Shown here: in pieces, positions 7,801-59,746 of the stretch | How positions within the stretch are numbered: position 1 is the stretch's first letter | Layout: every line of letters begins with the position of its first letter | Assembly (NCBI GenBank): GCA_965216635.1 | Contig: OZ244188.1 | Coordinates: forward strand, 136,001-200,000 | From: a bacterium | Lineage (GTDB): Bacteria; SAR324; XYD2-FULL-50-16; G965216635 | DNA length: 64,000 nt | Direction: 5' to 3' | Notes under the pieces: model-generated | The model's input: only the letters and a program-made list of their open reading frames with translations | The model's database searches: none | What the model was told of the DNA's origin: nothing | Program-made: the position numbers and the translations under genes

Positions 7801-7849
7801 AAGAAATTTTTTTAACTATTTCCTGTAGATAATGCTCCATTATTCCCAC
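4808..7849 (-). CDS. res: Type III restriction endonuclease, Res subunit (SF2 helicase-nuclease)
   Basis: Walker A ATGSGKT, DEAH-box-like LLDEAHKG, 1013 aa, 10-nt overlap with upstream mod gene. Confidence 0.85.
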   Translation of the reverse strand: MGIMEHYLQEIVKKISFANLPAEWQNFDLKSFSQKKRLYDFQKEALENSLKGLHLFYSENHKDYQTRKNNFFQKYRNNNYDENFDYTLNQKGSKKKSKENKTTKYLLEYSEEYSVSGDKISFASFINRMSFWMATGSGKTLVIVKLIHLLGELIRKGEIPKNDILFLAHREDLLQQFKEHIAEFNRDNFETKILLKSLKEYESVKHENALPYSKKEITIFYYRSDLISDEHKQNIVNFKNYDNFGKWYILLDEAHKGDKEESKRQIFYSILSRNGFLFNFSATFTDARDYASCVFDFNLAKFIGAGYGKHIYVSKQKVTAFKEQDNFSEIEKQKIVLKTLLLQTYSYKHFKKIRKTNGSLYHRPLLLTLVNSVNTKKSDLDKIIKEPDLKLFFAELEKIANNQIKPNLLEEAKTELLAEFSDNNKYLFENTKIEIDSNILSKISYKKILQAVFNANNFGKIEILKVPKNKKEIAFKLQTSEKPFALIKIGDISGWLKDTVADYQIIESLENESIFKKINQDDSDINILMGSRSFYEGWDSNRPNLILFVNIGMAKDSKKFVLQSVGRGLRIEPLKNKRKRLQNLIAAEEAEQELFDKIKQNILALESLFVFGTNAENLKNIIEKLQEEQQKPEHNLGDLFAINEKIKNRLLLVPVYQKSNKILAESSTVLKYSVSKKDLTQTQKLFEHLGDKIVLLKNECEIKVLKKVSESMQNQSKYYNFDETRNIDKPDLHLKSILDYFSIQNQEVDGFKKLEAEIVHFKEIKFKDGNKIEELKEKLEIIKNQKLNKSSAAKELELEELFKTGKRKDYDEQLTLFEKFESAKTFELNNQKIKIKYLANHYYHPLIVAEQEKVDYLNHIIDVPSEIKFIENLEEYLQKDNSVFKNYDWWMFSKLDETLDSIHIPYYNPKTNSISHFFPDFIFWMQKEKNYTILFLDPKGTEHTDVIRKIDGYKNLFEEKIENKNQAKKYLSHGFTIKTQLFFKTRDTTLAPEEYRKYWLDDFDRLAGKINEA

Positions 7850-10312: not shown

Positions 10313-11812
10313 TTAAAATTCAGTAACTCTAGTTTTCACCTTAGTTTTTCCCTGCTCTGTTGTTTCCAAATAAAATTTATAAAGTAGATTTTGAGATACA
10401 GCACTGCGGTATTCTTTCGTTGCTCTCAAATCGCTAATAGGAGAGTAGTCTTTTTGCAAAGTTTTCATTGTAGCCATTATTGTCTCTTCTTCCCATAGTT
10501 TGCCTAGCAAAGCCTGTTCGGTTTTATAAGCTCTTTTGGGGAAGGCAGACATACCTGAAAAAGCGATGGCTATTTTTTGAATGCTGTTAGCATCATCTAG
10601 TTCAAGTTGGAAAGCTCCGCAAAGTGCAGATATATCATCGTCTATTCTTTTGGATATTTTGTAAATTCTAAAATACTGTTTTTCTGTGGGTTTTGGAATT
10701 TGAATCTGTTCTATAAACTCCCCTTTTTTCAGGGCTGTTTTTCTGTAGTCAAGAAAAAAATCTGTAGCTAGAATCACTCTAGTTTTTGCTGCGTGCCCAG
10801 TAGATACTTGGCAAGCTTGCCTTAAAACAAAACGCGCCCCCCAAACCAATAGAGCTGGTGGAGTGTCGGCTACTGCTGAAGCGTTGGCGAGGTTGCCGCC
10901 AATACTAGCTTGATTTCTAATTTGTGGAGAAGCAAATCTTGTCAACAGCAAGGCAAAGTCGGGGTAATATTTTTCAAAAATAAAAAAAAGTTTAGCAAGT
11001 GGCACAGCAGATCCTAAATGGAGTTCGGTTTTTGTTTCCTTGATAATATTTAATTCTGCCACTCTGTGTAAATCAATAATGGCATAAAATCTCTGATGCC
11101 TCTGGGTGATTGCTAGAGATAAATCCGTTCCTCCACAGCTAAGTTTGGCATCTGGATTTTGTAGTAGAAGGTGAATGAAATTTTTTAAGTTTGTAGGAAG
11201 ATAGTAATTTTTTATAAGAGTATCTCCGCCTAGCGCTGTTTTGGCTGGAGATTCTTTAAGGCTATGCAGTAGTTTTAAAGTTTTTTTCTCCTCGCACGGG
11301 TGGGCATCTGCTGGTGTATCTGCTGGTGTATCTATTGGGGCTTGAAGAGCAGCATCTATAATTGCTCTGTAACCAGTGCAGCGGCAAAGATTCCCAGTCA
11401 AACCTTCCAAGACCTGTTCACGAGTAGGTTTTATGTGGTTTTGAAACAGCGCAAATAAAGACATCACAAAACCAGGTGTGCAAAAACCACATTGGGAGCC
11501 GTGATAATCTACCAAAGCTTGTTGCACAGGGTGTAACCCTTTTTTATCTTTTAAACCCTCTACTGTTATCAACTGATTGCCTTCTAAATTGCCCAGCAAG
11601 GCTATGCAAGAGTTAATCGTCCGATATTTTAGTTTTGTATATTTAGAATCTGGCTCTGCGAGAACTACAGTGCAGGCTCCACAATCACCACTAGCGCAAC
11701 CTTCTTTAGTGCCACAAAAACCCTCTTTTCGTAAATACTCCAAAATCGTTGTATTGGCGTTTTCTTCTTGGATAGTGCGGATTTCATTTTTGTTAAGTAG
11801 GAATTGGAGCAT
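10313..11812 (-). CDS. xdhA: Xanthine dehydrogenase small subunit (2Fe-2S ferredoxin + FAD-binding domains). True start probably MLQFLLNK at 11812; the ORF-track N-terminal extension to 11908 is likely spurious
   Basis: Two [2Fe-2S] cysteine clusters (CGxGxCGAC…, CGFCTPG, CRCTGY) followed by a CO-dehydrogenase flavoprotein-like FAD domain. Confidence 0.85.
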   Translation of the reverse strand: MLQFLLNKNEIRTIQEENANTTILEYLRKEGFCGTKEGCASGDCGACTVVLAEPDSKYTKLKYRTINSCIALLGNLEGNQLITVEGLKDKKGLHPVQQALVDYHGSQCGFCTPGFVMSLFALFQNHIKPTREQVLEGLTGNLCRCTGYRAIIDAALQAPIDTPADTPADAHPCEEKKTLKLLHSLKESPAKTALGGDTLIKNYYLPTNLKNFIHLLLQNPDAKLSCGGTDLSLAITQRHQRFYAIIDLHRVAELNIIKETKTELHLGSAVPLAKLFFIFEKYYPDFALLLTRFASPQIRNQASIGGNLANASAVADTPPALLVWGARFVLRQACQVSTGHAAKTRVILATDFFLDYRKTALKKGEFIEQIQIPKPTEKQYFRIYKISKRIDDDISALCGAFQLELDDANSIQKIAIAFSGMSAFPKRAYKTEQALLGKLWEEETIMATMKTLQKDYSPISDLRATKEYRSAVSQNLLYKFYLETTEQGKTKVKTRVTEF

Positions 11813-11953
11813 AATAAAAAGTATAATTATTGTTTTTATTAAAAACACCCTAATAAACCAAAGCCTACTAATAGTAAAATAGATAATCAAGAAAAAAAAC
11901 GCTGGCAATACCTATTTGATGATTTTAAGAGCTCTTATCCTTTTAATGGATGA

Positions 11954-12040: not shown

Positions 12041-12237
12041 AATTTTTTTTTGCTTTTCGTGAAAACAAAAAAAACACAAAGCTCTCACTAAAAATAAACC
12101 CTTGCATTAAGTTATATTTTGGCTAAACTAGGAAAATGTTAAAAAAAAATAAAGAATTATTTTTTTTTGTTTGCTTTTAATTTTTTTTCAGTTATATTTC
12201 TATTTTTACCTTCTTCTAACCTTTATTAAATATTATT

Positions 12238-13491
12238 ATGCAAGAAGTAACAAAAAGGGCGTTAAATAGCTCTCTTAAAAATTGTGAGACAAAATTAGCT
12301 CAATTTAACCAACGGGCTGGTTTTCAACGGGCGAGTTTTCGTGGAGCGTTATTGCTAGGTGCGGTTTTGTTGAGTTTGCTATTTGTAGGTAATCTGCAAG
12401 CACAGAGCAGCGTTAGCACAAAACAGGGATTTTTCGCGGGTATTGTCTATCTACAAGGATTCGGAGTAGATACCACAAAAACTAGCACAAGCTCTGCTAC
12501 TGGCTATGAAATCACTGGCTATGGAGAGGCAACCACTGGAATAGATTTAACTGGTGGAAATCCTAACTGGCCTACTGCAACAGCAACTGGAATGAGAGCT
12601 TTACTAAAAGCAAACTGTGAAACAGGAATAACGAGGATTACACAAACAGATGGAAATTACTTTTTCCCCGTGAGTACCTTTAGCTCTTTTAATGAGATTA
12701 AGGATGCTACTGTAACATCCCTAGACAGTGTTACTGGAGTTCGATTTAGAAATGGAAAAGACCCAAGTGAAGACTCCCATTGTCGTAGGCATTTTTACGG
12801 TGATCTTTCCTCTGGAAGAACCGCTATTAATTTTTCTGCCTATGAGATAGCGACTCCAGATTCGCTTTCAAAATCCCCTCTCCCCAGCACAGAGAGCGAC
12901 GCACTCAACGGTGTCGGTCTGCAAGTCGGCTGGCGAGGAGAAAAATGGAGAGCCTCCTTGACTCACTTTACTGGCAAGGGTGGAGCTAACGAGCTCGTCA
13001 ATACAGTGGTGATGGCGGAGTATTTTTTTCACGAGGAGTTTTTTGCAGGAGGCGGTCTAGCGAGTATGAAGCTTACCAATGGCTCTACTAGTGCTTCGGC
13101 TACTAGTCCCGTGTTAACGGTAGGCTATAAGGAGAACTTAACTCCCAACCTATTCTTTAATATTAGCTTGACGAAGTATATCTCGGGGGTTTCTCTGAGC
13201 CGTTCTGCTCCAGCTTCTGCTCCGATTCCCACTGGCAGAACTTTTAGCGAAACACAGACTGCACGCGGTGATTCAGCCTTTCTTGGAGGCCTAGTTTATA
13301 TAAATGACAGGGGAAGTGCATTTAAATTCAGTTATGATGTTGGTGCTATTGTAGATAGCAGAATAGAAGTAACCCAAGTCCGCACAAGAGATGTGGAAAT
13401 ACAAGAAGTTGAAATTCCAGCAGCGGAGAAAATTGAAGCTGAAATCAAAGCCCCCGTAGTCGTCAGCATTTCCCTGCTTTGGCGCTTTTAA
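12238..13491 (+). CDS. Paralogous outer-membrane beta-barrel protein, copy 1 (conserved N-terminal MQEVTKRALNSSLKNCETK extension, hydrophobic signal-like segment, C-terminal …VVVSISLLWRF)
   Basis: C-terminal aromatic-X-Phe OMP signature, alternating beta-strand pattern, 5-member paralog family with shared upstream region. Confidence 0.6.
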   Translation: MQEVTKRALNSSLKNCETKLAQFNQRAGFQRASFRGALLLGAVLLSLLFVGNLQAQSSVSTKQGFFAGIVYLQGFGVDTTKTSTSSATGYEITGYGEATTGIDLTGGNPNWPTATATGMRALLKANCETGITRITQTDGNYFFPVSTFSSFNEIKDATVTSLDSVTGVRFRNGKDPSEDSHCRRHFYGDLSSGRTAINFSAYEIATPDSLSKSPLPSTESDALNGVGLQVGWRGEKWRASLTHFTGKGGANELVNTVVMAEYFFHEEFFAGGGLASMKLTNGSTSASATSPVLTVGYKENLTPNLFFNISLTKYISGVSLSRSAPASAPIPTGRTFSETQTARGDSAFLGGLVYINDRGSAFKFSYDVGAIVDSRIEVTQVRTRDVEIQEVEIPAAEKIEAEIKAPVVVSISLLWRF

Positions 13492-13597
13492 CAGAGTTGT
13501 TGAAAAAAATGCAAAATTCTTTTTTTTTGTTTGCTTTTAATTTTTTTTCAGTTATATTTCTAATTTTAATCTCTTCTAACTTTTATTAAATATTATT

Positions 13598-14902
13598 ATG
13601 CAAGAAGTAACAAAAAGAGCGTTAAAAACACCTCTTAAAAATTGTGAGACAAAAGTAGCCCAATTTAATCAACGGGCTGGTTTTCAATGGGCTGGTTTTC
13701 AATGGGCTGGTTTTCAATGGGCTGGCTTCAAATGGAATGGCGTTGTATTGCTAGGTGCGATTTTGTTGAGTTTGCTATTTGTAGGTAATCTGCAAGCACA
13801 GAGCAGCGTTAGCACAAAACAGGGATTTTTCGCGGGTATTGTTTATCTACAAGGATTCGGAGTAGATACCACAAAAACTAGCACAAGCTCTGCTACTGGC
13901 TATGAAATCACTGGCTATTCAAACGACGAAACTAGAATAGACGCAACAGGTGGGAATATTTATTTGAATAAGATAGTACTAACTAGCATCAGAGTTTTAT
14001 TCAAAGAAAACTGTGAAGCAGGAACAACGAGTATTACACAAACAGGTGGAGATGCAAATTCAAATGGAAATTACTATTTTGCCTCGAAGCACTTCAGCTC
14101 TTTTAATGAGATTAAGGATGCTACTGAAACAGCCAAGGGAGGCACTATTGTTGAAACTGGATTTAGAAATGGAACAGTGGCAACTCATGACTCCTATTGT
14201 CGCAGGTACTTTTACGGAGATCTTTCCTCTGGAAGAACCACTATTAGTTTTTCTGCCTATGAGATAGCGACTCCAGATTCGCCTTCAAAACCCCCCGTCA
14301 CCAGCACAGAGAGCGACGCACTCAACGGTGTCGGTCTGCAAGTCGGCTGGCGAGGAGAAAAATGGAGAGCCTCTCTGACTCACTTTACTGGCAAGGGTGG
14401 AGCTAACGAGCTCGTCAATACAGTGGTGATGGCGGAGTATTTTTTTCACGAGGAGTTTTTTGCAGGAGGCGGTCTAGCGAGTATGAAACTTACCAATGGA
14501 TCTACTAGCGCCTCGGCTACTAGTCCCGTGTTAACGGTAGGCTATAAGGAGAACTTAACTCCCAACCTATTCTTTAATATTAGCTTGACGAAGTATATCT
14601 CGGGTATTTCTCTGAGCCGTTCTACTAATCCAGCTCAGATTCCCACTGGCGCCCCTCTTATAAGAAAAACACAGACTAAAGATGGTGATACAGTGTACAT
14701 TGGAGGAATAGTTGAGAGGAATGAAGCACGGTTTCGATATAGCTCCGCATTAGAAAGTGTGTCAGATTCCAGAATAGAAGCAACCCAAGTCCGTAGCCGA
14801 GATGTGGAAATACAACAAGTCACAACTCCAGCAGCGCAGAAGATAGAAGCCGAAATCAAAGCCCCCGTAGTCGTCAGCATTTCCCTGCTGTGGCGCTTTT
14901 AA
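13598..14902 (+). CDS. Paralogous outer-membrane beta-barrel protein, copy 2 (4 copies of GFQWA pentapeptide repeat in N-terminal extension)
   Basis: As copy 1; 15-bp in-frame tandem repeat GCTGGTTTTCAATGG. Confidence 0.6.
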   Translation: MQEVTKRALKTPLKNCETKVAQFNQRAGFQWAGFQWAGFQWAGFKWNGVVLLGAILLSLLFVGNLQAQSSVSTKQGFFAGIVYLQGFGVDTTKTSTSSATGYEITGYSNDETRIDATGGNIYLNKIVLTSIRVLFKENCEAGTTSITQTGGDANSNGNYYFASKHFSSFNEIKDATETAKGGTIVETGFRNGTVATHDSYCRRYFYGDLSSGRTTISFSAYEIATPDSPSKPPVTSTESDALNGVGLQVGWRGEKWRASLTHFTGKGGANELVNTVVMAEYFFHEEFFAGGGLASMKLTNGSTSASATSPVLTVGYKENLTPNLFFNISLTKYISGISLSRSTNPAQIPTGAPLIRKTQTKDGDTVYIGGIVERNEARFRYSSALESVSDSRIEATQVRSRDVEIQQVTTPAAQKIEAEIKAPVVVSISLLWRF

Positions 14903-15009
14903 CAGAATTGTTGAAAAAAATGCAAAATTCTTTTTTTTTATTTTCTTTTTTATTTTTTTTCAGTTATATTTCTATTTTTACCTTCTTCTAACCTTTATTA
15001 AATATTATT

Positions 15010-16353
15010 ATGCAAGAAGTAACAAAAAGGGCGTTAAAAACACCTCTTAAAAATTGTGAGACAAAAGTAGCTCAGGCTGGTTTTCAATGGGCTAACCAAT
15101 GGGCTAATCAACGGGCTGGTTTTCAATGGGCTAATCAACGGGCTGGATTCCAATGGAATGGCGTTGTATTGCTAGGTGCGGTTTTGTTGAGTTTGCTATT
15201 TGTAGGTAATCTGCAAGCACAGAGCCCCAATGGAAACACAAAACAGGGATTTTTCGCGGGTATTGTTTATCTACAAGGATTCGGAGTAGATACCACAAAA
15301 ACTAGCACAAGCTCTGCTACTGGCTATGAAATCACTGGCTATTCAAATGACGAAACTAGAATAGACGCAACCTCTGGATTGTCTTATTGGGATACCCCAG
15401 CGGGGACGACAGCCGGAATTGGAGCTAGAGCTTTAATAGCGGCAAACTGTGAACGTGATGCAACAAATACTACATATCTAGGTGAAAATTATTATCTTCC
15501 AAGAAATTTCTATTTCTTCGATTCTTTTGATCCTGGTGCGAAACAGTCTTTAGCTGATATTAATAGTTCAATGAATGATGCTACTGTTACTTTTAATGAC
15601 GACACTATTTCTAGTAGAATCTTTCGTTCAGGATTGGTAGCTGGAGAAACATCCTATTGTAAAACTTACTTTGATAGCCTTCCCCAAATTAATTTTTCTG
15701 CCTATGATGTAACTCCAGATTCGCCTTCAAAACCCCCCGTCACCAGCACAGAGAGCAACGCACTCAACGGTGTTGGTCTGCAATTCGGCTGGCGAGGAGA
15801 AAAATGGAGAGCCTCCTTGACTCACTTTACTGGCAAAGGTGGAGCTAACGAGCTCGTCAATACAGTGGTGATGGCGGAGTATTTTTTTCACGAGGAGTTT
15901 TTTGTAGGAGGCGGTCTAGCGAGTATGAAGCTTACCAATGGCTCTACTAGCGCCTCGGCTACTAGTCCCGTGATCACGGTAGGCTATAAGGAGAACTTAA
16001 CTCCCAACCTATTCTTTAATATTAGCTTGACAAAGTATATCTCGGGTATTTCTCTGAGCCGTTCTACTAGTCCTACAGCTACTAACAAAACTTTTACCCG
16101 CACACAGACTGAACGCGGTAAAGATAGTCATAAAGCAACGATTGGTAGCAGAATCACAGTTCCTGCTAATCGGCAAAGCGGGGTAGGCGCTATTTTTCAA
16201 CAAGCAGCAGGTCCTGATAATAGAATAGAAGTAACCCAATTCCGCAGCAGAGATGTGGAAATAGAAGAAGTCACAACTCCAGCAACGCAGAAGATAGAAG
16301 CTGAAATCAAAGCCCCCGTAGTCGTCAGCATTTCCCTGCTGTGGCGCTTTTAA
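15010..16353 (+). CDS. Paralogous outer-membrane beta-barrel protein, copy 3 (mixed GFQWA/NQWA/NQRA repeats)
   Basis: As copy 1. Confidence 0.6.
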   Translation: MQEVTKRALKTPLKNCETKVAQAGFQWANQWANQRAGFQWANQRAGFQWNGVVLLGAVLLSLLFVGNLQAQSPNGNTKQGFFAGIVYLQGFGVDTTKTSTSSATGYEITGYSNDETRIDATSGLSYWDTPAGTTAGIGARALIAANCERDATNTTYLGENYYLPRNFYFFDSFDPGAKQSLADINSSMNDATVTFNDDTISSRIFRSGLVAGETSYCKTYFDSLPQINFSAYDVTPDSPSKPPVTSTESNALNGVGLQFGWRGEKWRASLTHFTGKGGANELVNTVVMAEYFFHEEFFVGGGLASMKLTNGSTSASATSPVITVGYKENLTPNLFFNISLTKYISGISLSRSTSPTATNKTFTRTQTERGKDSHKATIGSRITVPANRQSGVGAIFQQAAGPDNRIEVTQFRSRDVEIEEVTTPATQKIEAEIKAPVVVSISLLWRF

Positions 16354-16383
16354 TAGAGTTGTGTAGGCACCGAATCACCTAAA

Positions 16384-16521
16384 CTTTTGAATTTGCATTC
16401 TGTTTAGCCTATGCAGCGTTAAAAAAAAATTTTAACTCTTGAAATATTACATATATTCCTGCGAGCTAAAATTTTTTTTTGCCTTGCCTAGCCGTCACAT
16501 AACGCAAATTCAAAGGTCTAT
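16384..16521. mobile_element. MITE-like element inserted in the loop of the post-OMP3 hairpin (GGCACCGAATCACCTAAAC | element | ACCTAAACTCGGTGCC), with an apparent 8-bp duplication ACCTAAAC
   Basis: The uninterrupted version of the same hairpin exists on the other strand near 57005-57035; element body is >90% identical to the 59556-59699 copy. Confidence 0.65.
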
Positions 16522-16805
16522 TACCTAAACTCGGTGCCATTCAAAAAACCACCTCCCCGCCAAACCGCATCCCCTCCAAAAACACCTAAAAAAACAAAAT
16601 TGCAGGGACATTTTTTTTGCTTTTCGTGAAAACAAAAAAAACACAAAGCTCTCACTAAAAATAAACCCTTGCATTAAGTTATATTTTGGCTAAACTAGGA
16701 AAATTTTAAAAAAAGATAAAAAGTTATGTTTTTTTTGTTTGCTTTTAATTTTTTTTCAGTTATATTTCTATTTTTACCTTCTTCTAACCTTTATTAAATA
16801 TTATT

Positions 16806-18089
16806 ATGCAAGAAGTAACAAAAAGGGCGTTAAATAGCTCTCTTAAAAATTGTGAGACAAAAGTAGCTCAGGCTGGTTTTCAATGGGCTAATCAACGGGC
16901 TGGATTCCAATGGAATGGCGTTGTATTGCTAGGTGCGGTTTTGTTGAGTTTGCTATTTGTAGGTAATCTGAAAGCACAAACCCAAAATGGTTCCAATGGA
17001 AGCACAAAACAGGGATTTTTCGCTGGTATTGTCTATCTACAAGGATTCGGAGTAGATACCACAAAAAGCAGCACAAACTCTGCTACTGGCTATAGAATCA
17101 AATATTCAAACGATATTACTGGAATAGACGCAACAGGTGGGAATCATACGTTGAGCCCTTTACTTTTACTAACTAGCATCAGAGCTTTATTCAAAGAAAA
17201 CTGTGAAGAAGGAACAACGAATTTTACACAAACGGGTGGACAAGCAAATTCAAATGGAAATTACTATTTTACCAGGGATTACTTCGTATCTTTTAATGAG
17301 ATTAAGGATGCTACTGTAATAGAATTTGTAGACCCTATTGCTCGAACTAGATTTAACAATGGAAAAGTGGTAACTCATGACTCCTATTGTCGCAGGTACT
17401 TTTACGGTGATCTTTCCTCCACTAGAACCCCTATTAATCTTCCTGATCCTGATGTGACTGCAGATTCGCTTTCAAAACCCCCCGTCACCAGCACAGAGAG
17501 CGATGCACTCAACGGTATCGGTCTGCAAGTCGGCTGGCGAGGGGAAAAATGGAGAGCCTCTCTGACTCACTTCACTGGCAAAGGTGGAGCTAACGAGCTC
17601 GCCAATACAGTGGTAATGGCGGATTATTTTTTTCACGAGAAATTTTTTGCAGGAGGCGGTCTAGCGAGTATGAAGCTTACCAATGGTTCAACTAGCGCCT
17701 CGGCTACTAGCCCCGTGGTTCAAGTAGGCTATAAGGAAAACTTAACTCCCAACCTATTCTTTAATATTAGCTTGACAAAGTATATCTCGGGTATTTCTCT
17801 GAGCCGTTCTACTAATCCAGCTCCGATTCCCACTGGCGCCCCTCTTATTAGAAAAACACAGACTAAAGATGGTGATACAGTATTCATTGGAGGAACAGTT
17901 ACTAGAATTGACAGGTCGAATCAATATAACTCCTTATTTAGCAGTGTGTTAGATTCCAGAATAGAAGTAACCCAAGTCCGCAGCCGAGATGTGGAAATAC
18001 AACAAGTCACAACTCCAGCAGCGCAGAAGATAGAAGCCGAAATCAAAGCCCCCGTAGTCGTCAGCATTTCCCTGCTTTGGCGCTTTTAA
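16806..18089 (+). CDS. Paralogous outer-membrane beta-barrel protein, copy 4
   Basis: As copy 1; shares about 270-bp upstream region with copy 1. Confidence 0.6.
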   Translation: MQEVTKRALNSSLKNCETKVAQAGFQWANQRAGFQWNGVVLLGAVLLSLLFVGNLKAQTQNGSNGSTKQGFFAGIVYLQGFGVDTTKSSTNSATGYRIKYSNDITGIDATGGNHTLSPLLLLTSIRALFKENCEEGTTNFTQTGGQANSNGNYYFTRDYFVSFNEIKDATVIEFVDPIARTRFNNGKVVTHDSYCRRYFYGDLSSTRTPINLPDPDVTADSLSKPPVTSTESDALNGIGLQVGWRGEKWRASLTHFTGKGGANELANTVVMADYFFHEKFFAGGGLASMKLTNGSTSASATSPVVQVGYKENLTPNLFFNISLTKYISGISLSRSTNPAPIPTGAPLIRKTQTKDGDTVFIGGTVTRIDRSNQYNSLFSSVLDSRIEVTQVRSRDVEIQQVTTPAAQKIEAEIKAPVVVSISLLWRF

Positions 18090-18396
18090 CAGAAAAAAAC
18101 CTACAATGGATGTTGCAAAGCATAACATGTAGAGACGCCCTACACGGGCGTCTTATATGATGTGCATAAACCACAAAAAAAACTATTTTAATAAAAGTTC
18201 TGAATTTATGAGACGCTCGTATAGAGCGTCTCTACAGACCTACATAAAATAAAAAATAACGCCCCGCATTTCCCCAAACATCTTCTTAAGAACGGGGACA
18301 CATTTTTACCCAAAATGGTTGAATAAGCAAAAAATAACGTTCCCGCAAAAACACCTAAAAAACAAAATTGCAGTGGGCATTTTTTTAATTTTGCCC

Positions 18397-18402
18397 TATA
18401 AT
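18397..18402 (+). promoter_or_regulatory. Putative -10 box (TATAAT) of the Bdr-like array promoter, inside the conserved module CAAAATTGCAGNGGNCATTTTTTTAATTTTNCCCTATAATCTTTTTATTTT
   Basis: Module conserved (reverse-complemented) upstream of the two minus-strand Bdr-like transcription units at about 55625-55690 and 56890-56945. Confidence 0.35.
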
Positions 18403-18500
18403 CTTTTTATTTTTTGGGGCTTGACTTCACTAGAATAGTTTGCTAAAATAAAACAACCAAAATAAAATGTTAAGAAAAATAAAATGTTAAGAAAAATAAA

Positions 18501-19022
18501 ATGTTAAGAACAACTACCGCACAAAAATTTACTTCTACTAAAATCTACGATCTTTTGATTGGACTAGGTGCAGAAAAAAAGAGCGCAGAGATTGCTATTG
18601 GAGAGTTTGTAGAACTGGTCCCAAAAGCTTTGGCTTCTAGTACAACAGAAACTGGTTTGGATACCACTCTTCCTACGGACAAAGGGGATATCTGGAGATT
18701 AGAATCCATCATTTCAGACAACAAAAGCGATACAGACATAAAACTGAAAGAAATTGAGAAGGAAATAGTAAAAATCAAAAGCAACCTAAAAGAAACTATA
18801 GCAAAAACCAAAAGCGACCTAAAAGAAACTATAGCAAAAATCGAAAGCAACTTAAAAGAAACTATAGCAAAAAACAAAAGCGATACCGATTTAAAAATAG
18901 AAATGATGAGAACAGAAGCAGAAAAAAACAAAAACGCTCTATTGATTATAGGAATTTCAACACAGCTAGCAGTTGGTGGGCTGGTTGTGGCTGTATTACA
19001 GCTTTTAAAAGTTTTGACTTAA
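18501..19022 (+). CDS. Bdr-like / DUF1640-like small coiled-coil membrane protein (173 aa; C-terminal cassette …LQLLKVLT)
   Basis: Conserved N-domain MLRTTTAQKFTSTKIYDLLIGLGAEKK…, 11-aa (33-bp) tandem repeats KSDLKETIAKx, C-terminal TM helix; architecture parallels Borrelia Bdr proteins. Confidence 0.55.
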   Translation: MLRTTTAQKFTSTKIYDLLIGLGAEKKSAEIAIGEFVELVPKALASSTTETGLDTTLPTDKGDIWRLESIISDNKSDTDIKLKEIEKEIVKIKSNLKETIAKTKSDLKETIAKIESNLKETIAKNKSDTDLKIEMMRTEAEKNKNALLIIGISTQLAVGGLVVAVLQLLKVLT

Positions 19023-19110
19023 TAAAGTAGCAGAAAAGTTTAGCTTATCTGCAAAATGTATTTTGGCGAGGGGATATTTTTTGGGGGCATTGACTTTAAA
19101 AGGAGAATTT

Positions 19111-19180
19111 GCCAAAATAAGTTTGCCAAAATAAGTTTGCCAAAATAAGTTTGCCAAAATAAGTTTGCCAAAATAAGTTT
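19111..19180. repeat. 14-bp tandem repeat GCCAAAATAAGTTT x5 in the promoter region of the second Bdr-like transcription unit (downstream of TTGACT at 19090)
   Basis: Seen directly; the same repeat is present in 2 copies at 20439-20466 upstream of the next unit. Confidence 0.8.
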
Positions 19181-19251
19181 GATTGCTATGATCTTTTTAG
19201 GTAGAATTTATAAAAATAAAACAACCAGCTATAAAAACCTTTAAAAATAAA

Positions 19252-19788
19252 ATGTTAAGAACAACTACAGCACAAAAATTTACTTCTACTAAAATCTACG
19301 ATCTTTTGATTGGACTAGGTGCAGAAAAAAAGAGCGCAGAGATTGCTATTGGAGAGTTTGTAGAACTGGTCCCAAAAGCTTTGGCTTCTAGTACAACAGA
19401 AAATGGTTTGGATGTCACTCTTCCTACGGACAAAGGGGATATCTGGAGATTGGAATCCATCATTTCAGACAACAAGAACGATACAGACAGAATAATAACA
19501 GAGAACAGAAACGACCTAGAAAGAATAATAACAGACAATAAAAATGATACAGACCTAAAACTGAAAGATATTGAGAGTAAAATCGTAAAAACCAAAAGCG
19601 ACTTGATAAGAATAATAACAGACAATAAAAATGATACAGACCTGAAATTTAAGGATATAGATTTAAAAATAGAAAGGATGAGAACAGAAGTAGAAAAAAA
19701 CAAAAACGCTCTATTGATTATAGGAATTTCAACACAGCTAGCAGTTGGTGGGCTGGTTGTGGCTATTTTACAATTTTTACAAAACTAA
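19252..19788 (+). CDS. Bdr-like small coiled-coil membrane protein (178 aa; C-terminal cassette …AILQFLQN)
   Basis: Paralog family as above. Confidence 0.55.
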   Translation: MLRTTTAQKFTSTKIYDLLIGLGAEKKSAEIAIGEFVELVPKALASSTTENGLDVTLPTDKGDIWRLESIISDNKNDTDRIITENRNDLERIITDNKNDTDLKLKDIESKIVKTKSDLIRIITDNKNDTDLKFKDIDLKIERMRTEVEKNKNALLIIGISTQLAVGGLVVAILQFLQN

Positions 19789-19795
19789 AAATAAA

Positions 19796-20350
19796 ATGTT
19801 AAGAACAGCTACGACACAAAAATTTACTTCTACCAAAATCTACGATCTTTTGATTGGACTAGGTGCAGAAAAAAAGAAAGCAGAGATTGCTATTGGAGAG
19901 TTTGTAGAACTGAGACCAAAAGCTTTGGCTTCTAGTACAACAGAAACGGGTTTGGATACCACTCTTCCTACGGACAAAGGGGATATCTGGAGATTGGAAT
20001 CTATCATTTCAGAGAACAAGAACGATACAGATATAAAACTGAAAGATATTGAGAGTAAAATCGTAGAAACCAAAAGCGACCTAGAAAAAACTATAGCAAA
20101 AACCAAAAGCGACCTAGAAAAAACTATAGCAAAAATCGAAAGCAACCTAAAAGAAACTATAGCAAAAATCGAAAGCAACTTAAAAGAAACTATAGCAAAA
20201 AATAAAAGCGATACCGATTTAAAAATAGAAATGATGAGAACAGAAGTAGAAAAAAACAAAAACGCTTTATTGATTATAGGAATTTCAACACAGCTAGCAG
20301 TTGGTGGGCTGGTTGTGGCTGCATTACAGCTTTTAAAAGTTTTGACTTAA
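19796..20350 (+). CDS. Bdr-like small coiled-coil membrane protein (184 aa from MLRTATTQ; ORF-track start 19745 is an extension into the upstream gene). Separated by only 7 bp from the upstream paralog
   Basis: Paralog family as above. Confidence 0.55.
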   Translation: MLRTATTQKFTSTKIYDLLIGLGAEKKKAEIAIGEFVELRPKALASSTTETGLDTTLPTDKGDIWRLESIISENKNDTDIKLKDIESKIVETKSDLEKTIAKTKSDLEKTIAKIESNLKETIAKIESNLKETIAKNKSDTDLKIEMMRTEVEKNKNALLIIGISTQLAVGGLVVAALQLLKVLT

Positions 20351-20438
20351 TAAAGTAGCAGAAAAGTTTAGCTTATCTGCAAAATGTATTTTGGTGAGGG
20401 GATATTTTTTTGGGGCATTGACTTTAAAAGGAGAATTT

Positions 20439-20466
20439 GCCAAAATAAGTTTGCCAAAATAAGTTT
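20439..20466. repeat. 14-bp tandem repeat GCCAAAATAAGTTT x2 (same promoter context as 19111-19180)
   Basis: Seen directly. Confidence 0.8.
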
Positions 20467-20536
20467 GATTGCTATGATGTTTTTAGTAGAATTTATAAAA
20501 ATAAAACAACCAAAATAAAAACTTTTAAAAAATAAA

Positions 20537-21106
20537 ATGTTAAGAACAACTACAGCACAAAACTTTACTTCTACTAAAATCTACGATCTTTTGATTGGAC
20601 TAGGTGCAGAAAAAAAGAAAGCAGAGATTGCTATTGGAGAGTTTGTAGAACTGAGACCAAAAGCTTTGGCTTCTAGTACAACAGAAACTGGTTTGGATGT
20701 CACTCTTCCTACGGACAAAGGGGATATCTGGAGATTGGAATCTATCATTTCAGAGAACAAGAACGATACAGATATAAAACTGAAAGATATTGAGAGTAAA
20801 ATCGTAGAAACCAAAAGTAACCTAGAAAAAATAATAACAGAAAACAGAAACGACCTAGAAAAAATAATAACAAAAAACAGAAACGACCTAGAAAAAATAA
20901 TAACAGACAACAGAAACGACCTAGAAAGAATAATAACAGACAATAAAAATGATACAGACCTGAAATTTAAGGATATAGATTTAAAAATAGAAAGGATGAG
21001 AACAGAAGTAGAAAAAAACAAAAACGCTCTGTTATTCTGGGGTGTGACAGCCCAGCTGACTATTGGTGGGTTGGTTGTGACTATACTACAATTTTTACAA
21101 AACTAA
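20537..21106 (+). CDS. Bdr-like small coiled-coil membrane protein (189 aa; C-terminal cassette …LLFWGVTAQLTIGGLVVTILQFLQN)
   Basis: Paralog family as above. Confidence 0.55.
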   Translation: MLRTTTAQNFTSTKIYDLLIGLGAEKKKAEIAIGEFVELRPKALASSTTETGLDVTLPTDKGDIWRLESIISENKNDTDIKLKDIESKIVETKSNLEKIITENRNDLEKIITKNRNDLEKIITDNRNDLERIITDNKNDTDLKFKDIDLKIERMRTEVEKNKNALLFWGVTAQLTIGGLVVTILQFLQN

Positions 21107-21113
21107 AAATAAA

Positions 21114-21617
21114 ATGTTAAGAACAACTACAGCACAAAACTTTACTTCTACTAAAATCTACGATCTTTTGATTGGACTAGGTGCGGAAAAAAAGAAAGCA
21201 GAGATTGCTATTGGAGAGTTTGTAGAACTGAGACCAAAAGCTTTGGCTTCTAGTGCAGCAAAAACGGGTTTGGATACCACTCTTCCTACGGACAAAGGGG
21301 ATATCTGGAGATTGGAATCTATCATTTCAGAGAACAAGAACGATACAGATATAAAACTGAAAGATATTGAGAGTAAAATCGTAGAAACCAAAAGTAACCT
21401 AGAAAGAATAATAACAGACAACAGAAACGATCTAGAAAGAATAATAACAGACAATAAAAATGATACAGACCTGAAATTTAAGGATATAGATTTAAAAATA
21501 GAAAGGATGAGAACAGAAGTAGAAAAAAACAAAAACGCTCTATTGATTATAGGAATTTCAACACAGCTAGCAGTTGGTGGGCTGGTTGTGACTATACTAC
21601 AATTTTTACAAAACTAG
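21114..21617 (+). CDS. Bdr-like small coiled-coil membrane protein (167 aa)
   Basis: Paralog family as above. Confidence 0.55.
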   Translation: MLRTTTAQNFTSTKIYDLLIGLGAEKKKAEIAIGEFVELRPKALASSAAKTGLDTTLPTDKGDIWRLESIISENKNDTDIKLKDIESKIVETKSNLERIITDNRNDLERIITDNKNDTDLKFKDIDLKIERMRTEVEKNKNALLIIGISTQLAVGGLVVTILQFLQN

Positions 21618-22065
21618 AGACCTTTATTAGCGTTCTGTTTAGCCTATGCAGCGTTGAAAAATTTTTTTAACTCTTGAAATATCACACATATTCCAGCGAG
21701 CTAAAAAAATTTTTCGCCTTGCCTAGCCGTCACATAACACTAATACAAAACTCTCACTAAAAATAGGACCTTTATTAGCGTTCTGTTTAGCCAAAACAAG
21801 CTTATTGCTTGAAACTATTTATGGGCTATAGAAAAAGTGCCTTTTGGCACTTTTTCATTTCTTTTTTGGAGTATGCAAAGTTTGTAGTGCCCTGATCCCA
21901 TTATTGTGGCACTACGCCATTGAAAAATTTTTTTAACTCTTGAAATATCACACATATTCCAGCGAGCTAAAAAAATTTTTCGCACCTGTTCTAACCATTT
22001 GGCTAGCCGTCTTAAGAACAACTACAGCACAAACTCTCACTAAAAATAAGACCTTTGCGGGATTT
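21615..22065. mobile_element. Cluster of degenerate/partial MITE-like copies (two internal segments …AACTCTTGAAATATCACACATATTCCAGCGAGCTAAAAAAATTTTTCGC…), interleaved with a fragment of a Bdr-like gene start (CTTAAGAACAACTACAGCACAAA at about 22012-22034)
   Basis: Direct comparison with the full copies at 16384 and 59556 and with the Bdr-like 5' ends (ATGTTAAGAACAACTACAGCACAAAA). Confidence 0.5.
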
Positions 22066-29445: not shown

Positions 29446-29612
29446 TATAGACTTTTGAATTTGCGTTCTGTTTAGCCTATACATCGTTAAAAAAAATTGT
29501 CCCTTGAAATACTTGAGTATTGCTGCGAGCCAAATTTTTTTCGCACCTGTTCTAACCATTTGGCTAGCCTTCGCAGCTGGTTTTGTCCTATTTGGTAAAT
29601 TCAAAGGTCTAT
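29446..29612. mobile_element. Full-length MITE-like element (167 bp) with inverted termini TATAGACTTTTGAATTTG … AAATTCAAAGGTCTAT
   Basis: Terminal inverted repeats seen directly; related to copies at 16384, 59556, 61841. Confidence 0.7.
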
Positions 29613-29789
29613 CCTATTTTTTTGGATAATATTTTAGACAAATTTCTTTGTTTTTCTTTAAAAATCCCTATTTATAAGATATTTTTTGATTTTTAAAGCA
29701 ATTTACTCTTATAATTCTTAAAACAAACTTGACAAAAATTTTAAAATTCTTATGCTTTATTATAATTTCAAACTACTTATTTTTAAAAA

Positions 29790-31420: not shown

Positions 31421-31504
31421 GCCGAGGTGGTGAAATTGGTAGACACGCTGGACTCAAAATTCAGTAGACGCAAGTCTGTGTCGGTTCAAGTCCGACCCTC
31501 GGCA
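31421..31504 (+). tRNA. tRNA-Leu (anticodon CAA), long variable arm
   Basis: Cloverleaf by hand: 7-bp acceptor GCCGAGG/CCTCGGC, anticodon stem CTGGA/TTCAG with loop CTCAAAA, variable arm, T-arm GTCGG TTCAAGT CCGAC; no encoded CCA. Confidence 0.8.
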
Positions 31505-31531
31505 CTTGCATTTTGTGAAAGAATCTATATT

Positions 31532-35254: not shown

Positions 35255-35340
35255 TATAGACTTTTGAATTTGCCAAATAGGACAAAACCAGCTATGACGT
35301 TTTGCTTCAAGCAAAATTCCCTGAAATACCAGCTCGCACT
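35255..35340. mobile_element. Partial MITE-like element (5' terminus TATAGACTTTTGAATTTG only)
   Basis: Seen directly. Confidence 0.5.
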
Positions 35341-35419
35341 ATAGCTACAGTTCTAAATAGAGAAGAAAAAAAAGAAGTAGCATGAAGTTAAGGTGGATTT
35401 AAAATAAAATGTTCAAGGA

Positions 35420-35566
35420 GTGAAAAAGGATTTAAAAGAAGGGTTTGCAAAAATAGATAAAGAAATCCAAAAACTTAAAACGGAGATTATTCTTATAAAA
35501 TGGACACTGGTCCTGGTTCTTGTAGCGGTGGTTATTCCTATTTTACAAAATATTTTTAGATTTTAG
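35420..35566 (+). pseudogene. Orphan 48-codon reading frame (VKKDLKEGFAKIDKEIQKLKTEIILIKWTLVLVLVAVVIPILQNIFRF*) resembling the coiled-coil + C-terminal TM cassette of the Bdr-like family (XhlA-like architecture). No in-frame ATG
   Basis: Manual translation; resembles the …ESRVHIIKWVIATTLTSTGILIVIIFGLLQFLKVAA cassette of genes 52873-53451 and 55738-56238. Confidence 0.35.
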
Positions 35567-35671
35567 AGGCAGGTTTTTATTTTCTGATTTTTGAATTTGT
35601 CAATAAAAGGGCATCACAACAAACATATGCCCTATTATAATATCTAACTGCGAGGCACTTCTTTTTGTAAA

Positions 35672-36632: not shown

Positions 36633-38285
36633 CTACTCTATTCGCCAAGTTTTGACTGCGATTTCAGCTAATTTTACTTGTCTAGAATTGATTTCTGCAA
36701 GTTTCCATTCTGTATAATTTTCAATATTACGATTGATAGAATATTTACTTTTAAGCAGGATCTTTTTTTTTTTTTCAAAGTCTTCTTGACCTGGATTTTC
36801 TTTGCTTGGTAATAAAGCCATATTGCCTAATCTTTGATTGCATTGCCCCCAATCATTTCCAAAATAATCTATCCATTCTTCTTGTGGGTTAAGAGGCAAA
36901 ATATGCTCTACTGTTAGATCTGTTTCACTAATGTTTTTTTTACTCTCAAATTCTTCTAATCTTGCCAATAGATAGCAAGCTCTCTTATTAGATTTTTTTG
37001 TAGGCATTACCTTTTCCTCAAAGTTCTGCTTAAAAATTTTATCGTTTGGATAAAGTGTTAATAATTTTTCTTTTACAGCATCAATTTTACAGCCTTTGGT
37101 AATAGCAACACAAATATCATTATAAAGAATTTCTTGTTCACCTGAATGTCCTCGACCAATTATATTGTAGCGTAAAGATAAAACACAAACCCATTCCAAG
37201 ATAATGTGAAAATCCTGTTTAAATTTCAAATAGCTTGCAAGTAATAGACTAATAGGCTTGCGAACACCAAATAAATGTAAGAATGAAATATTTTTTTTAA
37301 TCTTTCCAACTTGTTGATTAATCTTGTAGTCTTTCCAAAACTCACTATTTTCACTTACTAAAGCTCCATATAGATAACAGTCTGCAACAAGTTTATTGAG
37401 ATATTCATCCGACTGTTCTTTTTGCTGGATTTCTTGCCTGATGGCTCTAAATAGATGATTTTGACGCACCAGTTTATGATGATTATTCCAGTGAGCTAAT
37501 ATATATTCTGTATAGCTTTTTCCCGAAATATTTGCTCCTATTTTTTCCCATTTTTCATCCCATTCGTCCAAAATATTATCAGGGGTATCCCCCTCATCAT
37601 CAATTTTAGAAAATAGATAATTTTTTAATAAATCAGCAGAGGAAAGTTTTACCCCTCTTGCGTTGAGAGTTTCAAATATCTTGTAAGCATTAAGTTCATC
37701 TCCTATGTAAAGTGTTGTAAAAAACATTCTATTTGTCATTTTATTAACTAGACTGCTAATTTTTTCTCCTTCACTAATAGCAGCAAATTTTTCACTAAAA
37801 AAATCTATTGATTTTCTCATCAAACTCACAGTTTCTTTTACATTTCGTCTGGGGATTTCGTTTTCGTCTACTGCACTGCGGTAGTGATAATCATTATTAC
37901 GATTGAGCTTTAGTTTGTTTTCTACACGTAAATAGACTAAATCTTTCGTACCAATAAAGTTTTTTAGTAGCTCGTCTGCTCGTTCTTTGTCATCGATTTT
38001 TTTCAGTCTTTTAATGGCTGCTAAAATCAATAAAGAAAAGGTAGTTAATCGCTGTTGCCCATCAATCACTTTGTAGAAACGTTCTTCTGTTTCTTCTAAT
38101 ACAAGATAGCCCATATAATGATACTCTTCTTCAGAATTAACAAGCTCTATATCTTCCCATAAATCTCTCCAATGTTCATTTTCCCAAGAATAGTCTCTTT
38201 GAAATTTTGGAACTAAGTATTTTTTACCATTGCCAAATATATCTCTCAGACTCTCATCTTTAGGATTAACTATTACTTTTGGCAT
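36633..38285 (-). CDS. GmrSD-like Type IV restriction endonuclease (DUF262 ParB-like N-domain + DUF1524 His-Me finger C-domain)
   Basis: N-terminal FQRDYSWE…DGQQRLTT (DUF262 signature), C-terminal EHILP…N…H-type HNH-like motif (DUF1524); 550 aa. Confidence 0.7.
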   Translation of the reverse strand: MPKVIVNPKDESLRDIFGNGKKYLVPKFQRDYSWENEHWRDLWEDIELVNSEEEYHYMGYLVLEETEERFYKVIDGQQRLTTFSLLILAAIKRLKKIDDKERADELLKNFIGTKDLVYLRVENKLKLNRNNDYHYRSAVDENEIPRRNVKETVSLMRKSIDFFSEKFAAISEGEKISSLVNKMTNRMFFTTLYIGDELNAYKIFETLNARGVKLSSADLLKNYLFSKIDDEGDTPDNILDEWDEKWEKIGANISGKSYTEYILAHWNNHHKLVRQNHLFRAIRQEIQQKEQSDEYLNKLVADCYLYGALVSENSEFWKDYKINQQVGKIKKNISFLHLFGVRKPISLLLASYLKFKQDFHIILEWVCVLSLRYNIIGRGHSGEQEILYNDICVAITKGCKIDAVKEKLLTLYPNDKIFKQNFEEKVMPTKKSNKRACYLLARLEEFESKKNISETDLTVEHILPLNPQEEWIDYFGNDWGQCNQRLGNMALLPSKENPGQEDFEKKKKILLKSKYSINRNIENYTEWKLAEINSRQVKLAEIAVKTWRIE

Positions 38286-44026: not shown

Positions 44027-44089
44027 TATAGACCTTTGAATTTGTGTTCTGTGACGGCTAAACTAGATAAGCAAATTCAAAAGTCTATA
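44027..44089. mobile_element. Mini MITE-like element (63 bp): TATAGACCTTTGAATTTG…GGCTAAACTAG…CAAATTCAAAAGTCTATA
   Basis: Both inverted termini present. Confidence 0.65.
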
Positions 44090-47788: not shown

Positions 47789-48334
47789 ATGGGCTATAGT
47801 TTTAGAAAATTATTAAAAAACAAAATGGATATTAAAAATTTGGTGCTTTTTATTTTGAATAACTGCAAGCCTAATATGGGAGTAAAAAAGCTTAACAAAT
47901 TAGCTTTTTTGTTGGAGTTCACTTATATTTTTGATCATTTTGATGGTGATTTTAGTAAACATAAAAAGCTAACAAAAACTAATTTTGTAGCTTTACCCAT
48001 GGGTCCCGTGATTCAGGATTACAAAGAATTATTCCAAGGGATGAAAAAAGAAAAATTGATTGTGCAAAATACAAAAGCAGATATAGGTAAAATTGATTAT
48101 CTTCCGCTAGTCAATAGAGATTTTGAAATTGACGAGAATAAGAAAAATTTTTTGTTACGAGTTTTGGATAAATACAAAAATCTCTCCGCAGCACAATTAC
48201 AAAACTATACTCATTCTTTGGATAGTTACGGTATTACTATGTCAGAAAACAACAACAAACCCGGTAAAATTATAGATAAAGAGCTGGCTCATTTGGACGC
48301 TATTTTATCTTTAGAAAATCTGATGGACGATTAA
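47789..48334 (+). CDS. Panacea-domain (DUF4065, SocA/PanA-like) putative antitoxin
   Basis: LNKLAFLLEF… and …FVALPMGPVIQDY… resemble the Panacea core (LxKLLYxAD… / …AxxYGPVxxxxY); 181 aa. Confidence 0.5.
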   Translation: MGYSFRKLLKNKMDIKNLVLFILNNCKPNMGVKKLNKLAFLLEFTYIFDHFDGDFSKHKKLTKTNFVALPMGPVIQDYKELFQGMKKEKLIVQNTKADIGKIDYLPLVNRDFEIDENKKNFLLRVLDKYKNLSAAQLQNYTHSLDSYGITMSENNNKPGKIIDKELAHLDAILSLENLMDD

Positions 48335-48339
48335 AATCT

Positions 48340-48618
48340 ATGCAGGTTATTCAGGTGATCTATGAACCAGATTTTGAAAAAAATTCTAAAAAAGAATTGC
48401 AAAAGAATTATTCTCAAGTAAAAAAAATTTTTGATAGAAAAGTCAATTTTCTTCTAAAGGAAGGACTTTTATACCCCTCTCTAAACACCAAAAAAACTGA
48501 ACCAAAATCAAGCAATATTTGGGAGTTTTACATCACAAGAAAAGAATATCGTTGTTTTTTTCGTTATGATAAGAAAGAAAAAACAACGACTAATATAAAA
48601 ATAGGCAAACACTTATAA
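48340..48618 (+). CDS. Small basic protein (92 aa), putative RelE/HigB (Gp49-like) family toxin partner of the upstream Panacea protein
   Basis: Size, pI, and C-terminal EFYITRKEYRCFFRYDKKEK pattern reminiscent of Gp49/HigB toxins; 5-bp spacing to upstream gene. Weak call. Confidence 0.35.
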   Translation: MQVIQVIYEPDFEKNSKKELQKNYSQVKKIFDRKVNFLLKEGLLYPSLNTKKTEPKSSNIWEFYITRKEYRCFFRYDKKEKTTTNIKIGKHL

Positions 48619-52701: not shown

Positions 52702-52775
52702 TATAGATTTTTGAATTTGCTTATCTAGTGTAGCCTATGCAGCGTTGAATTTTTTTTGTCTTGCCTAGCCTTCCA
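52702..52775. mobile_element. Partial MITE-like element (5' terminus TATAGATTTTTGAATTTG + internal segment)
   Basis: Seen directly. Confidence 0.5.
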
Positions 52776-53451: not shown

Positions 53452-53458
53452 TTTATTT

Positions 53459-53962: not shown

Positions 53963-53969
53963 TTTATTT

Positions 53970-54494: not shown

Positions 54495-54501
54495 TTTATT
54501 T

Positions 54502-55005: not shown

Positions 55006-55012
55006 TTTATTT

Positions 55013-56238: not shown

Positions 56239-56245
56239 TTTACTT

Positions 56246-59699: not shown

Positions 59700-59746
59700 T
59701 TTATTTAATAGTTTTTTTAAAGAATTTTATCTATAATATAGAAATA

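Follow-up and report, generated by a model that had tools for sequence, protein, structure and literature searches.

Probable non-autonomous foldback MITEs in the intergenic DNA of a SAR324 bacterium

Gene content of the window

The window, that is, the whole stretch of 64,000 nucleotides analysed here, carries two inverted arrays of paralogous genes, designated S and P, at 12238-21617 (plus strand) and 52873-58344 (minus strand). The S genes encode proteins of 166-201 aa that contain 11-aa/33-bp repeats (KNxNDLEKIIT) and a coiled coil and end in a membrane anchor at the C-terminus; in this architecture they are reminiscent of the Bdr proteins of Borrelia. The P genes encode proteins of 417-447 aa with a signal peptide and the C-terminal sequence ...LLWRF; they had no match in Pfam or NCBIfam and look like outer-membrane beta-barrels. 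The arms of the two arrays are 88-96% identical and lie about 31 kb apart. Since they are inverted and so similar, an inversion of the ~31-kb segment between them is possible. In L074 and L085, two contigs of related bacteria, pta and DHDPS are adjacent and the window's segment 52673-58572 is missing. A further ORF of 48 aa (35420-35566, plus strand), which lies between two termini of the repeats described below (35255 and 35585), resembles the C-terminal part of an S protein, with its coiled coil and membrane anchor.

Genes for a type III restriction-modification system (res, 4808-7849; mod, 7840-10308) are located between xanthine-dehydrogenase genes (2415-4697 and 10313-11908) and look like an insertion into the xanthine-dehydrogenase operon. 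A gene for a GmrSD-type restriction enzyme (36633-38285) lies between hisS and the gene for an ATP-dependent DNA ligase. In the relatives L152 and L154 hisS is directly followed by the ligase gene, which indicates that the GmrSD gene was inserted in the window's lineage. The gene for tRNA-Leu(CAA) (31421-31505) overlaps the mechanical GTG start of an aminotransferase ORF at 31427; as the Pfam domain does not begin before residue 69, the ORF probably has its true start further downstream. Just upstream of pheT, a SocA/Panacea-type antitoxin-like gene is followed by an ORF of 92 aa (47789-48618), a possible toxin-antitoxin pair that is also present in L074. The gene after mlaD (62315-64000) encodes a homologue of the cytoplasmic filament protein CfpA. 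The closest named homologues of CfpA and PheT come from SAR324/Lambdaproteobacteria MAGs (42-48% identity, versus 36-45% for spirochetes), and with the nearest homologues at such a distance the host belongs to a poorly described lineage.

The repeat copies and their structure

The initial annotation had proposed that a family of MITE-like elements of 60-170 bp with inverted termini is dispersed over ten or more intergenic sites of the window, and both parts of this proposal were borne out. The 18-nt terminus TATAGACYTTTGAATTTG was found 13 times (up to three mismatches, both strands), against 0.57 ± 0.82 times in shuffled sequences, and none of 100 shuffles reached 13; the matches are at 2304, 2352, 16378/16505, 29446/29596, 35255, 44027/44072, 52702, 59556, 61838 and 62123, and 3-bp duplications flank the intact copies (see below). 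Altogether, about 16 copies and fragments occupy 11 intergenic regions across 60 kb of the window. All of them are intergenic, though intergenic DNA makes up about 12% (~7.6 kb) of the window. The pieces recognised are listed below by coordinates and strand.

2305-2351, plus strand: first mini unit of a tandem pair, a terminus with the module CTAGTTTAGCC; exact 18-mer at 2304.
2352-2396, plus strand: second mini unit of the pair, with a shortened right arm ...CAAGTCTAT; exact 18-mer at 2352. The pair as a whole is flanked by ATT/ATT.
12082-12131, plus strand: degenerate remnant upstream of P1, made up of a right-end stub, CTAAAAATA and a decayed left end with GGCTAAACTAG, found by alignment; the motif GTTTAGCC lies at 12121-12128.
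16379-16521, plus strand: full-length 143-bp copy with a decayed left terminus; nhmmer E = 1e-45, fold -39.1 kcal/mol, z -7.0.
16649-16698, plus strand: degenerate remnant upstream of P4, a duplicate of the remnant at 12082-12131; alignment and motif match.
21617-21756, plus strand: full-length copy of a variant subfamily with the termini GAGACCTTTATTAGCG ... CACTAATACAAAACTCTCA; nhmmer E = 4e-46, fold z -6.7, flanks CTA/CTA; the insertion point is the stop codon of the last S gene.
21766-21811, plus strand: fragment from the left end of a second variant copy, with 100% identity between 21767-21792 and 21619-21644.
21916-22011, plus strand: internal fragment, the central module with CACCTGTTCTAACCATTTGGCTAGCC; nhmmer E = 3e-19, with 100% identity of 21920-21983 to 21654-21717 and of 21976-22008 to 29537-29569.
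29447-29612, plus strand: 166-bp type II copy with an alternative right half, the copy that prompted the study; E = 2e-21, flanks CCT/CCT, fold -43.5 kcal/mol, z -4.1.
35256-35345, minus strand: inverted right end of type II (35256-35293, 95% identity with 29612-29575) and then internal pieces that are scrambled.
35585-35600, plus strand: solo partial terminus GATTTTTGAATTTG, found by segment comparison.
44028-44088, minus strand: 61-bp mini with both termini and a deleted centre; flanks AAT/AAT, fold -20.9 kcal/mol, z -5.1; it ends 6 bp before the ATG of the PPIase gene.
52703-52775, plus strand: copy at the border of S/P array 2, 30 bp behind the stop codon of pta, with hairpin tip and right terminus missing; terminus match, profile match and alignment.
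58450-58480, minus strand: short remnant (the GGCTAAACTAG module) upstream of P5; alignment and motif match.
59557-59699, plus strand: the best preserved of the full-length copies (143 bp), located between the divergently oriented DHDPS and ABC genes; E = 3e-46, flanks TTT/TTT, fold -50.7 and -62.3 kcal/mol, z -9.0 and -10.4.
61839-61921, plus strand: left half of a type II copy with a deleted tip, its terminus overlapping the mlaD stop codon (61840-61842); terminus match, compared with L074 and L084.
62123-62139, plus strand: solo right terminus GAAATTCAAAGGTCTAT; match to TATAGACYTTTGAATTTG with one mismatch.

The terminus matches coincide with the places named in the initial annotation, except that 61841-62140 is two pieces and not one element. 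A single 301-bp element at 61838-62140 was rejected: its interior is native DNA kept in relatives (~61990-62100 is the native region upstream of cfpA, conserved in L074 and L084), and the flanks, TAG and AAT, differ. Degenerate pieces at 12082-12131, 16649-16698, ~58450-58480 and 35585-35600 were added to the earlier list. The statement that copies mark nearly every operon boundary proved too strong, as 9 of the 29 intergenic gaps of at least 60 bp hold one. Likewise, the palindrome ascribed to the minis does not lie inside one mini: CTAGTTTAGCC and GGCTAAACTAG represent one module, read in opposite orientations in different copies (2304/2352 versus 44027).

The internal segment that the longer copies had been said to share was confirmed, since 59561-59700 and 16383-16522 are 90% identical over 141 nt and 59573-59680 and 21630-21738 are 92.7% identical. 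An nhmmer profile built from the three 145-bp copies of the window scored these copies at E-values of the order of 1e-46 and 29447-29612 at 2e-21; it also recovered 21916-22012, 44029-44068, 52704-52749, 61840-61884 and 21768-21798. The internal motif GTTTAGCC occurred 13 times in the window versus 2.06 expected, and 12 of these occurrences were within copies or remnants, including three remnants upstream of P paralog genes. Window copies range from 61 to 166 bp, and the ORFs inside 29446-29613 are mechanical only and do not exceed 56 aa.

The loop of a hairpin that resembles a terminator, GGCACCGA/TCGGTGCC, holds the copy at 16379-16521; at the 3' end of the paralog P5 this hairpin has no interruption. 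The left terminus of the copy reads CCTAAAC instead of TATAGAC, and where a clean 3-bp duplication would be expected its flanks (window 16365-16545) carry an 8-bp direct repeat, ACCTAAAC, which may reflect a small deletion or a microhomology event. The S/P arrays were also considered as composite transposons bounded by element termini. This was rejected, since an intact right terminus is missing from array 2 and the remnants in front of the P genes go back to a junction of S end and element that was duplicated together with the unit.

The intact element is non-coding, about 143-147 bp long and an imperfect palindrome over its whole length. Its terminal inverted repeats of 18-26 bp read (N)TAGAYYTTTGAATTTG(CGTTMTGT). 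The modules follow one another in the order 18-nt terminus T, CGTTCTGTTTAGCC, TATRCAGCGTT, a centre of ~60 nt, CCTTGCCTAGCCGTCACATAACG and the inverted terminus. In type II (29447-29612) the right inner part is swapped for CACCTGTTCTAACCATTTGGCTAGCC and TTCGCAGCTGGTTTTGTCCTATTTGG; type II pieces recur at 21976-22008, 61902-61922 and, inverted, 35256-35293. Alignment of all copies to 59556-59700 revealed a nested series of central deletions, i.e., deletions of the hairpin tip, with ~45-50 nt of the centre missing in 52702 and 61838 and ~85 nt in 44027.

RNA folding of the copies, a check proposed by the initial annotation, gave long stable hairpins with z from -4.1 to -10.4. The minimum free energy of the 145-nt form was -50.7 kcal/mol on the plus strand and -62.3 kcal/mol on the minus strand, versus -21 and -26 for shuffled sequences (z -9.0 and -10.4). 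For the other copies z was -7.0 (16378), -6.7 (21613), -5.1 (the 63-nt mini) and -4.1 (type II).

The two arms of the hairpin change together. In the three window copies 8 of the 58 predicted pairs were changed on both sides, and after addition of the copies from the relatives L085 and L087 there were 11 compensatory pairs out of 49, with 91% of cells paired, in a small sample of about four independent sequences. None of 500 shuffles reached the observed number of paired cells, the double-sided changes (counted as pairs or as cells) or the covariation score, and slid controls gave 1-4 compensatory pairs. The A/T runs are complementary in each copy: A6T6...A6T6 in 59556, A9T4...A4T9 in 16378, A5T7...A7T5 in 21613 and A7T5...A5T7 in L085. 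In the 21617 subfamily both termini have changed together, TTATTAG and CTAATA replacing GAATTTG and CAAATTC. Conserved asymmetries between the arms argue against wholesale copying of one arm from the other. Template switching or repair within a quasi-palindrome is an established mutational process, and most likely the complementarity of the arms comes from this process or from selection on the hairpin. The A/T runs provide a natural example of arm co-evolution in a quasi-palindrome and leave the knowledge of the MITE mechanism as it was.

Insertion sites and distribution of the family

With ATAGAY...RTCTAT taken as the element bounds, every intact copy is flanked by a 3-bp direct repeat: CCT at 29447-29612, AAT at 44028-44088, TTT at 59557-59699 and ATT at the pair 2305-2396; the variant copy at 21617-21756 is flanked by CTA. 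In the intergenic DNA of the window two 3-mers match by chance with a probability of 0.032 per site, which gives ~3e-5 for three sites. The duplication at 21617 can be read as 2, 3 or 4 bp, and the ATT/ATT of the dimer at 2305-2396 may come in part from a third, decayed unit upstream. Older copies have imperfect duplications (CAC/TAC at 16379-16521, CAA/TAA in L085 and ACT/AAT in L084).

Empty sites were found both among paralogs and among orthologs. The other S-gene ends of the window read ACAAAACTAAAAATAAAATG, uninterrupted; the filled site at 21600 reads ACAAAACTA, then the 140 bp of the element, then CTAAAAATA, with CTA duplicated. In L152 and L154, whose HisS is 75% identical to that of the window, a 96-bp copy lies between a dehydrogenase gene and hisS: ...CAAAATAAAAT(CTAGACC...96 bp...GATCTAG)AATCACATCTTAA..., or ...CGCCAAAATAAAAT(CTAGACCTTTAAATTTG...CAAATTCAAAAGATCTAG)AATCACATCTTAAACTATGG, the element being given in parentheses. 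At this place the window contains no element and has a single AAT (...CAAAAAAGAATCACCTCTTAA..., or ...CGCCAAAAAAGAATCACCTCTTAACCTGTGG). We regard it as a clean empty site, since the copy of the relatives has AAT on both sides. The DHDPS-ABC spacer is 57-66 bp long in relatives versus 219 bp in the window, a comparison of length only, as the intergenic DNA is too diverged to align. It is worth adding that at three gene ends a copy supplies or overlaps the stop codon: at 21615-21617, in mlaD (61840-61842) and at 4980-4982 of L152, where the TAG of the element is the stop codon of the dehydrogenase gene; the stop at 21615-21617 is likewise provided by the element.

Contigs of related metagenomic species, fetched via homologues of PheT, CfpA and HisS, hold the family with diverged termini. 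L085, L086 and L087 have a 147-bp member, TGAGACTGTTGAATTAGG, which was found at E = 2e-13 with the nhmmer model made from window copies only. The mini of L084 is 59 bp long, has a perfect 17-bp inverted repeat, GAGACCTTTGAATTAGC, and is located 11 bp after the mlaD stop, in the same spacer as 61839 of the window. Members with CTAGAC termini are present in L152, L153 and L154, a weak remnant follows mlaD in L074 and L085-L088, and the relatives also hold copies at other loci. No copy was found in 45 kb of the more distant relatives L082 and L083 (PheT 56-59% identical). The density of the pieces, about one per 4 kb in the window versus about one per 10-19 kb in close relatives, suggests that the family has expanded in the window's lineage, as far as these contigs tell.

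A search for the exact 18-mer in GTDB representative genomes, JGI metagenomes and IMG/VR gave single matches only, at chance level since none extends past ~22 nt; the source genome is apparently outside these collections. The variant terminus GAGACYKTTGAATTAG had 63 single matches in IMG/VR, and none fits the element model. BLAST of the 145-bp copy against plasmids and phages gave no match. In Rfam, searched at gathering and permissive thresholds, the only match at gathering level was a tRNA and there was nothing for the element; the sub-threshold matches were long-hairpin miRNA precursors (25 bits versus a gathering score of 195). A literature search for the terminus sequences found no description of the family.

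Two observations concern the contigs of the relatives. Those of sample ERZ26869290 (L084 as a whole, L152 and L153) are inverted concatemers of one unit, and L153 folds back exactly at a MITE copy; the concatemers are probably long-read foldback chimeras caused by the palindromes. In L075 an 18-bp tandem repeat, TAGTTTTGCCAGAGACCT, of about four copies (7447-7536) starts at the pheT stop of this relative, and its part AGAGACCT resembles the variant element terminus.

Nature, mobility and effects of the elements

Bacterial MITEs are defined as elements of 50-800 bp with inverted termini of at least 10-15 bp and target duplications of 2-10 bp (PMC11602168). The repeats of the window are small and have no transposase gene, they possess inverted termini and target duplications, and filled and empty sites can be compared. 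The duplications, the paralogous and orthologous empty sites and the diverged members in relatives support the dispersed, non-autonomous, MITE-like nature that had been proposed. We consider it highly probable that the repeats are a lineage-specific family of non-autonomous foldback MITEs that insert into intergenic DNA with a 3-bp target duplication. The MITE family is new, and the kind of element is well known.

The initial annotation had stated that the window encodes no transposase, and neither a transposase nor an integrase domain was found in the scanned ORFs, which were those of at least 90 aa other than shadow ORFs and most array paralogs. The suggested search for a cognate IS with matching termini found none in the window or in ~160 kb of the relatives' contigs, so that we can only infer mobilisation in trans and the family of the transposase. 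In the proposed mechanism, a transposase encoded elsewhere in the genome, presumably of the DDE type and acting in trans, would bind both termini. The cut it makes in the target would be staggered by 3 bp, and the 3-bp direct repeat would arise when this cut is repaired. Insertions survive only in intergenic DNA or at the very ends of genes, where the terminal TAG can serve as a stop codon. The copies then decay by internal deletion, which removes the hairpin tip and gives the minis of 61-96 bp, by loss of termini, by recombination into mosaics and by duplication along with the surrounding gene arrays.

Insertion sequences of the IS1031 group (IS5 family) make 3-bp duplications and have ends beginning with GAG; the IS3 and IS30 families also make 3-bp duplications. 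The variant copies (window 21617, L084 and L085) resemble the IS1031 group in that they begin with GAGAC and have 3-bp duplications, whereas the main subfamily of the window begins with ATAGAC and the L152 copy with CTAGAC. By this analogy, the IS1031 group is a possible parent and only a lead.

Several known families of short repeats are similar in kind. ERIC/IRU elements of Enterobacteriaceae are intergenic imperfect palindromes of ~127 bp that end in inverted repeats and duplicate their target; co-transcription is frequent, a change of mRNA cleavage has been reported, and TA flanks the copies (PMC3184786). The window family matches them in size, in foldback over the whole length and in intergenic habit, but has no sequence similarity to them, duplicates a variable 3-mer instead of TA and belongs to another host lineage. 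Correia elements (NEMIS/CREE) of Neisseria are MITEs of 104-157 bp with long inverted termini and size variants due to internal deletions, located next to genes (PMC3184786). These features too are shared by the window family, whose duplications (CCT, AAT, TTT, ATT, CTA) and otherwise unrelated sequence set it apart, as does the fact that no consistent promoter was found. Correia termini begin with TATAG, which is a further match; at the insertion sites of Correia elements TA is duplicated, and the elements contain an IHF site as well as promoters that point outward. Membership in the Correia/ERIC type of TA-targeting MITEs was rejected, as the flanking repeats of the window copies are not TA. 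RUP of Streptococcus pneumoniae has been linked to an IS630-type element with TA as the target, and BOX of the same species is not known to make a target duplication. Both are short intergenic repeats, RUP being a 107-bp MITE and BOX being modular (PMC3184786). The window family is modular and mosaic like BOX and has no sequence similarity to either.

Other origins of the repeats fit the data less well. Palindromes of the REP/REPIN type, spread by a RAYT (an IS200/IS605-like HUH enzyme) through single-stranded hairpin intermediates, would agree with the intergenic copies, the long hairpins and the lack of a DDE transposase nearby. HUH-type elements, however, insert without duplication, unlike the variable 3-bp duplications and the clean filled/empty site seen here; moreover, the termini are not self-palindromic REP units and have no GTAG head, and the window yielded no Y1 or RAYT domain, which makes this origin extremely unlikely. 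We also find it very improbable that the repeats are decayed solo ends of a full-length insertion sequence. Many copies are indeed fragments or solo termini, but the 143-147 bp form is found again at unlinked sites and in other species, its internal parts arranged in the same order, and its palindromic interior has no coding remnant. There is similarly little probability that the copies are site-specific recombination or boundary sites (attC-like or invertase sites) which build and rearrange the paralogous surface-protein arrays. It is true that both S/P arrays have copies or remnants at their ends and each P unit has one upstream, that relatives lack array 2 together with its flanking copy, and that the two arrays are inverted repeats ~31 kb apart. 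However, most intact copies are among unrelated housekeeping genes (moaC/rplJ, DHDPS/ABC, upstream of the PPIase gene), and neither an integrase nor a recombinase turned up in the window. An intact right terminus is missing at the outer side of array 2, and a unit that already carried insertions and was then duplicated in tandem accounts for the remnants in front of the P genes. Integron attC sites, imperfect palindromes that follow every cassette of a one-directional array beside intI, were rejected in particular, given copies among housekeeping genes, in both orientations and with no integrase.

A different question is whether the host keeps the copies. The initial annotation had suggested that they provide promoters or terminators, which was not supported: consensus scans of the copies revealed no recurrent sigma-70 promoter or intrinsic terminator inside them. 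The terminator at 21831-21856 is native, because it is conserved in L074. The orientation of the copies relative to the flanking genes is mixed, with 2304 and 44027 antisense to their neighbours. It is conceivable, though we think it unlikely, that the elements spread by transposition and are retained as structured RNA modules that, transcribed along with adjacent genes, serve as an RNase III/RNase E target, a 3' stabiliser or an attenuator; in that case the copies would be regulatory parts with a function and more than passengers. The hairpins are very stable on both strands, the stem is kept by compensatory changes across copies and species, most copies are 0-30 bp from a gene end, three supply or overlap the stop of the upstream gene, and effects on mRNA processing have been reported for ERIC and Correia elements (PMC3184786). 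Such strong conservation of the foldback could mean that a host-level function, beyond selfish spread, keeps the copies. On the other hand, orientation is mixed, neither a U-tract terminator nor a promoter is seen consistently in the copies, truncation and scrambling are common among them as neutral decay predicts, the orthologous sites of relatives are empty with no visible replacement, and template switching in a quasi-palindrome gives arm co-variation without selection. Less probable still is the idea that the foldback is under selection and the copies act as portable 3'-end or boundary modules (a TAG stop plus a hairpin) that seed duplication and inversion of the P/S arrays. If true, this poorly known lineage would have domesticated the family as a tool to remodel gene ends and vary its surface.

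The best-supported interpretation is that of a non-autonomous transposon which behaves selfishly and affects its neighbouring genes only incidentally. The effects are the donation of stop codons at three gene ends, a long hairpin in read-through transcripts and extra homology for recombination. By analogy with ERIC and Correia elements, a regulatory role is possible.

The results thus describe a well-supported MITE family in an uncultured or little-studied lineage. The copies account for oddly long spacers and altered gene ends, and their palindromes appear to break long-read assemblies, the relatives' contigs folding back at or near copies. As marks of recent insertions, the copies are usable for strain typing.
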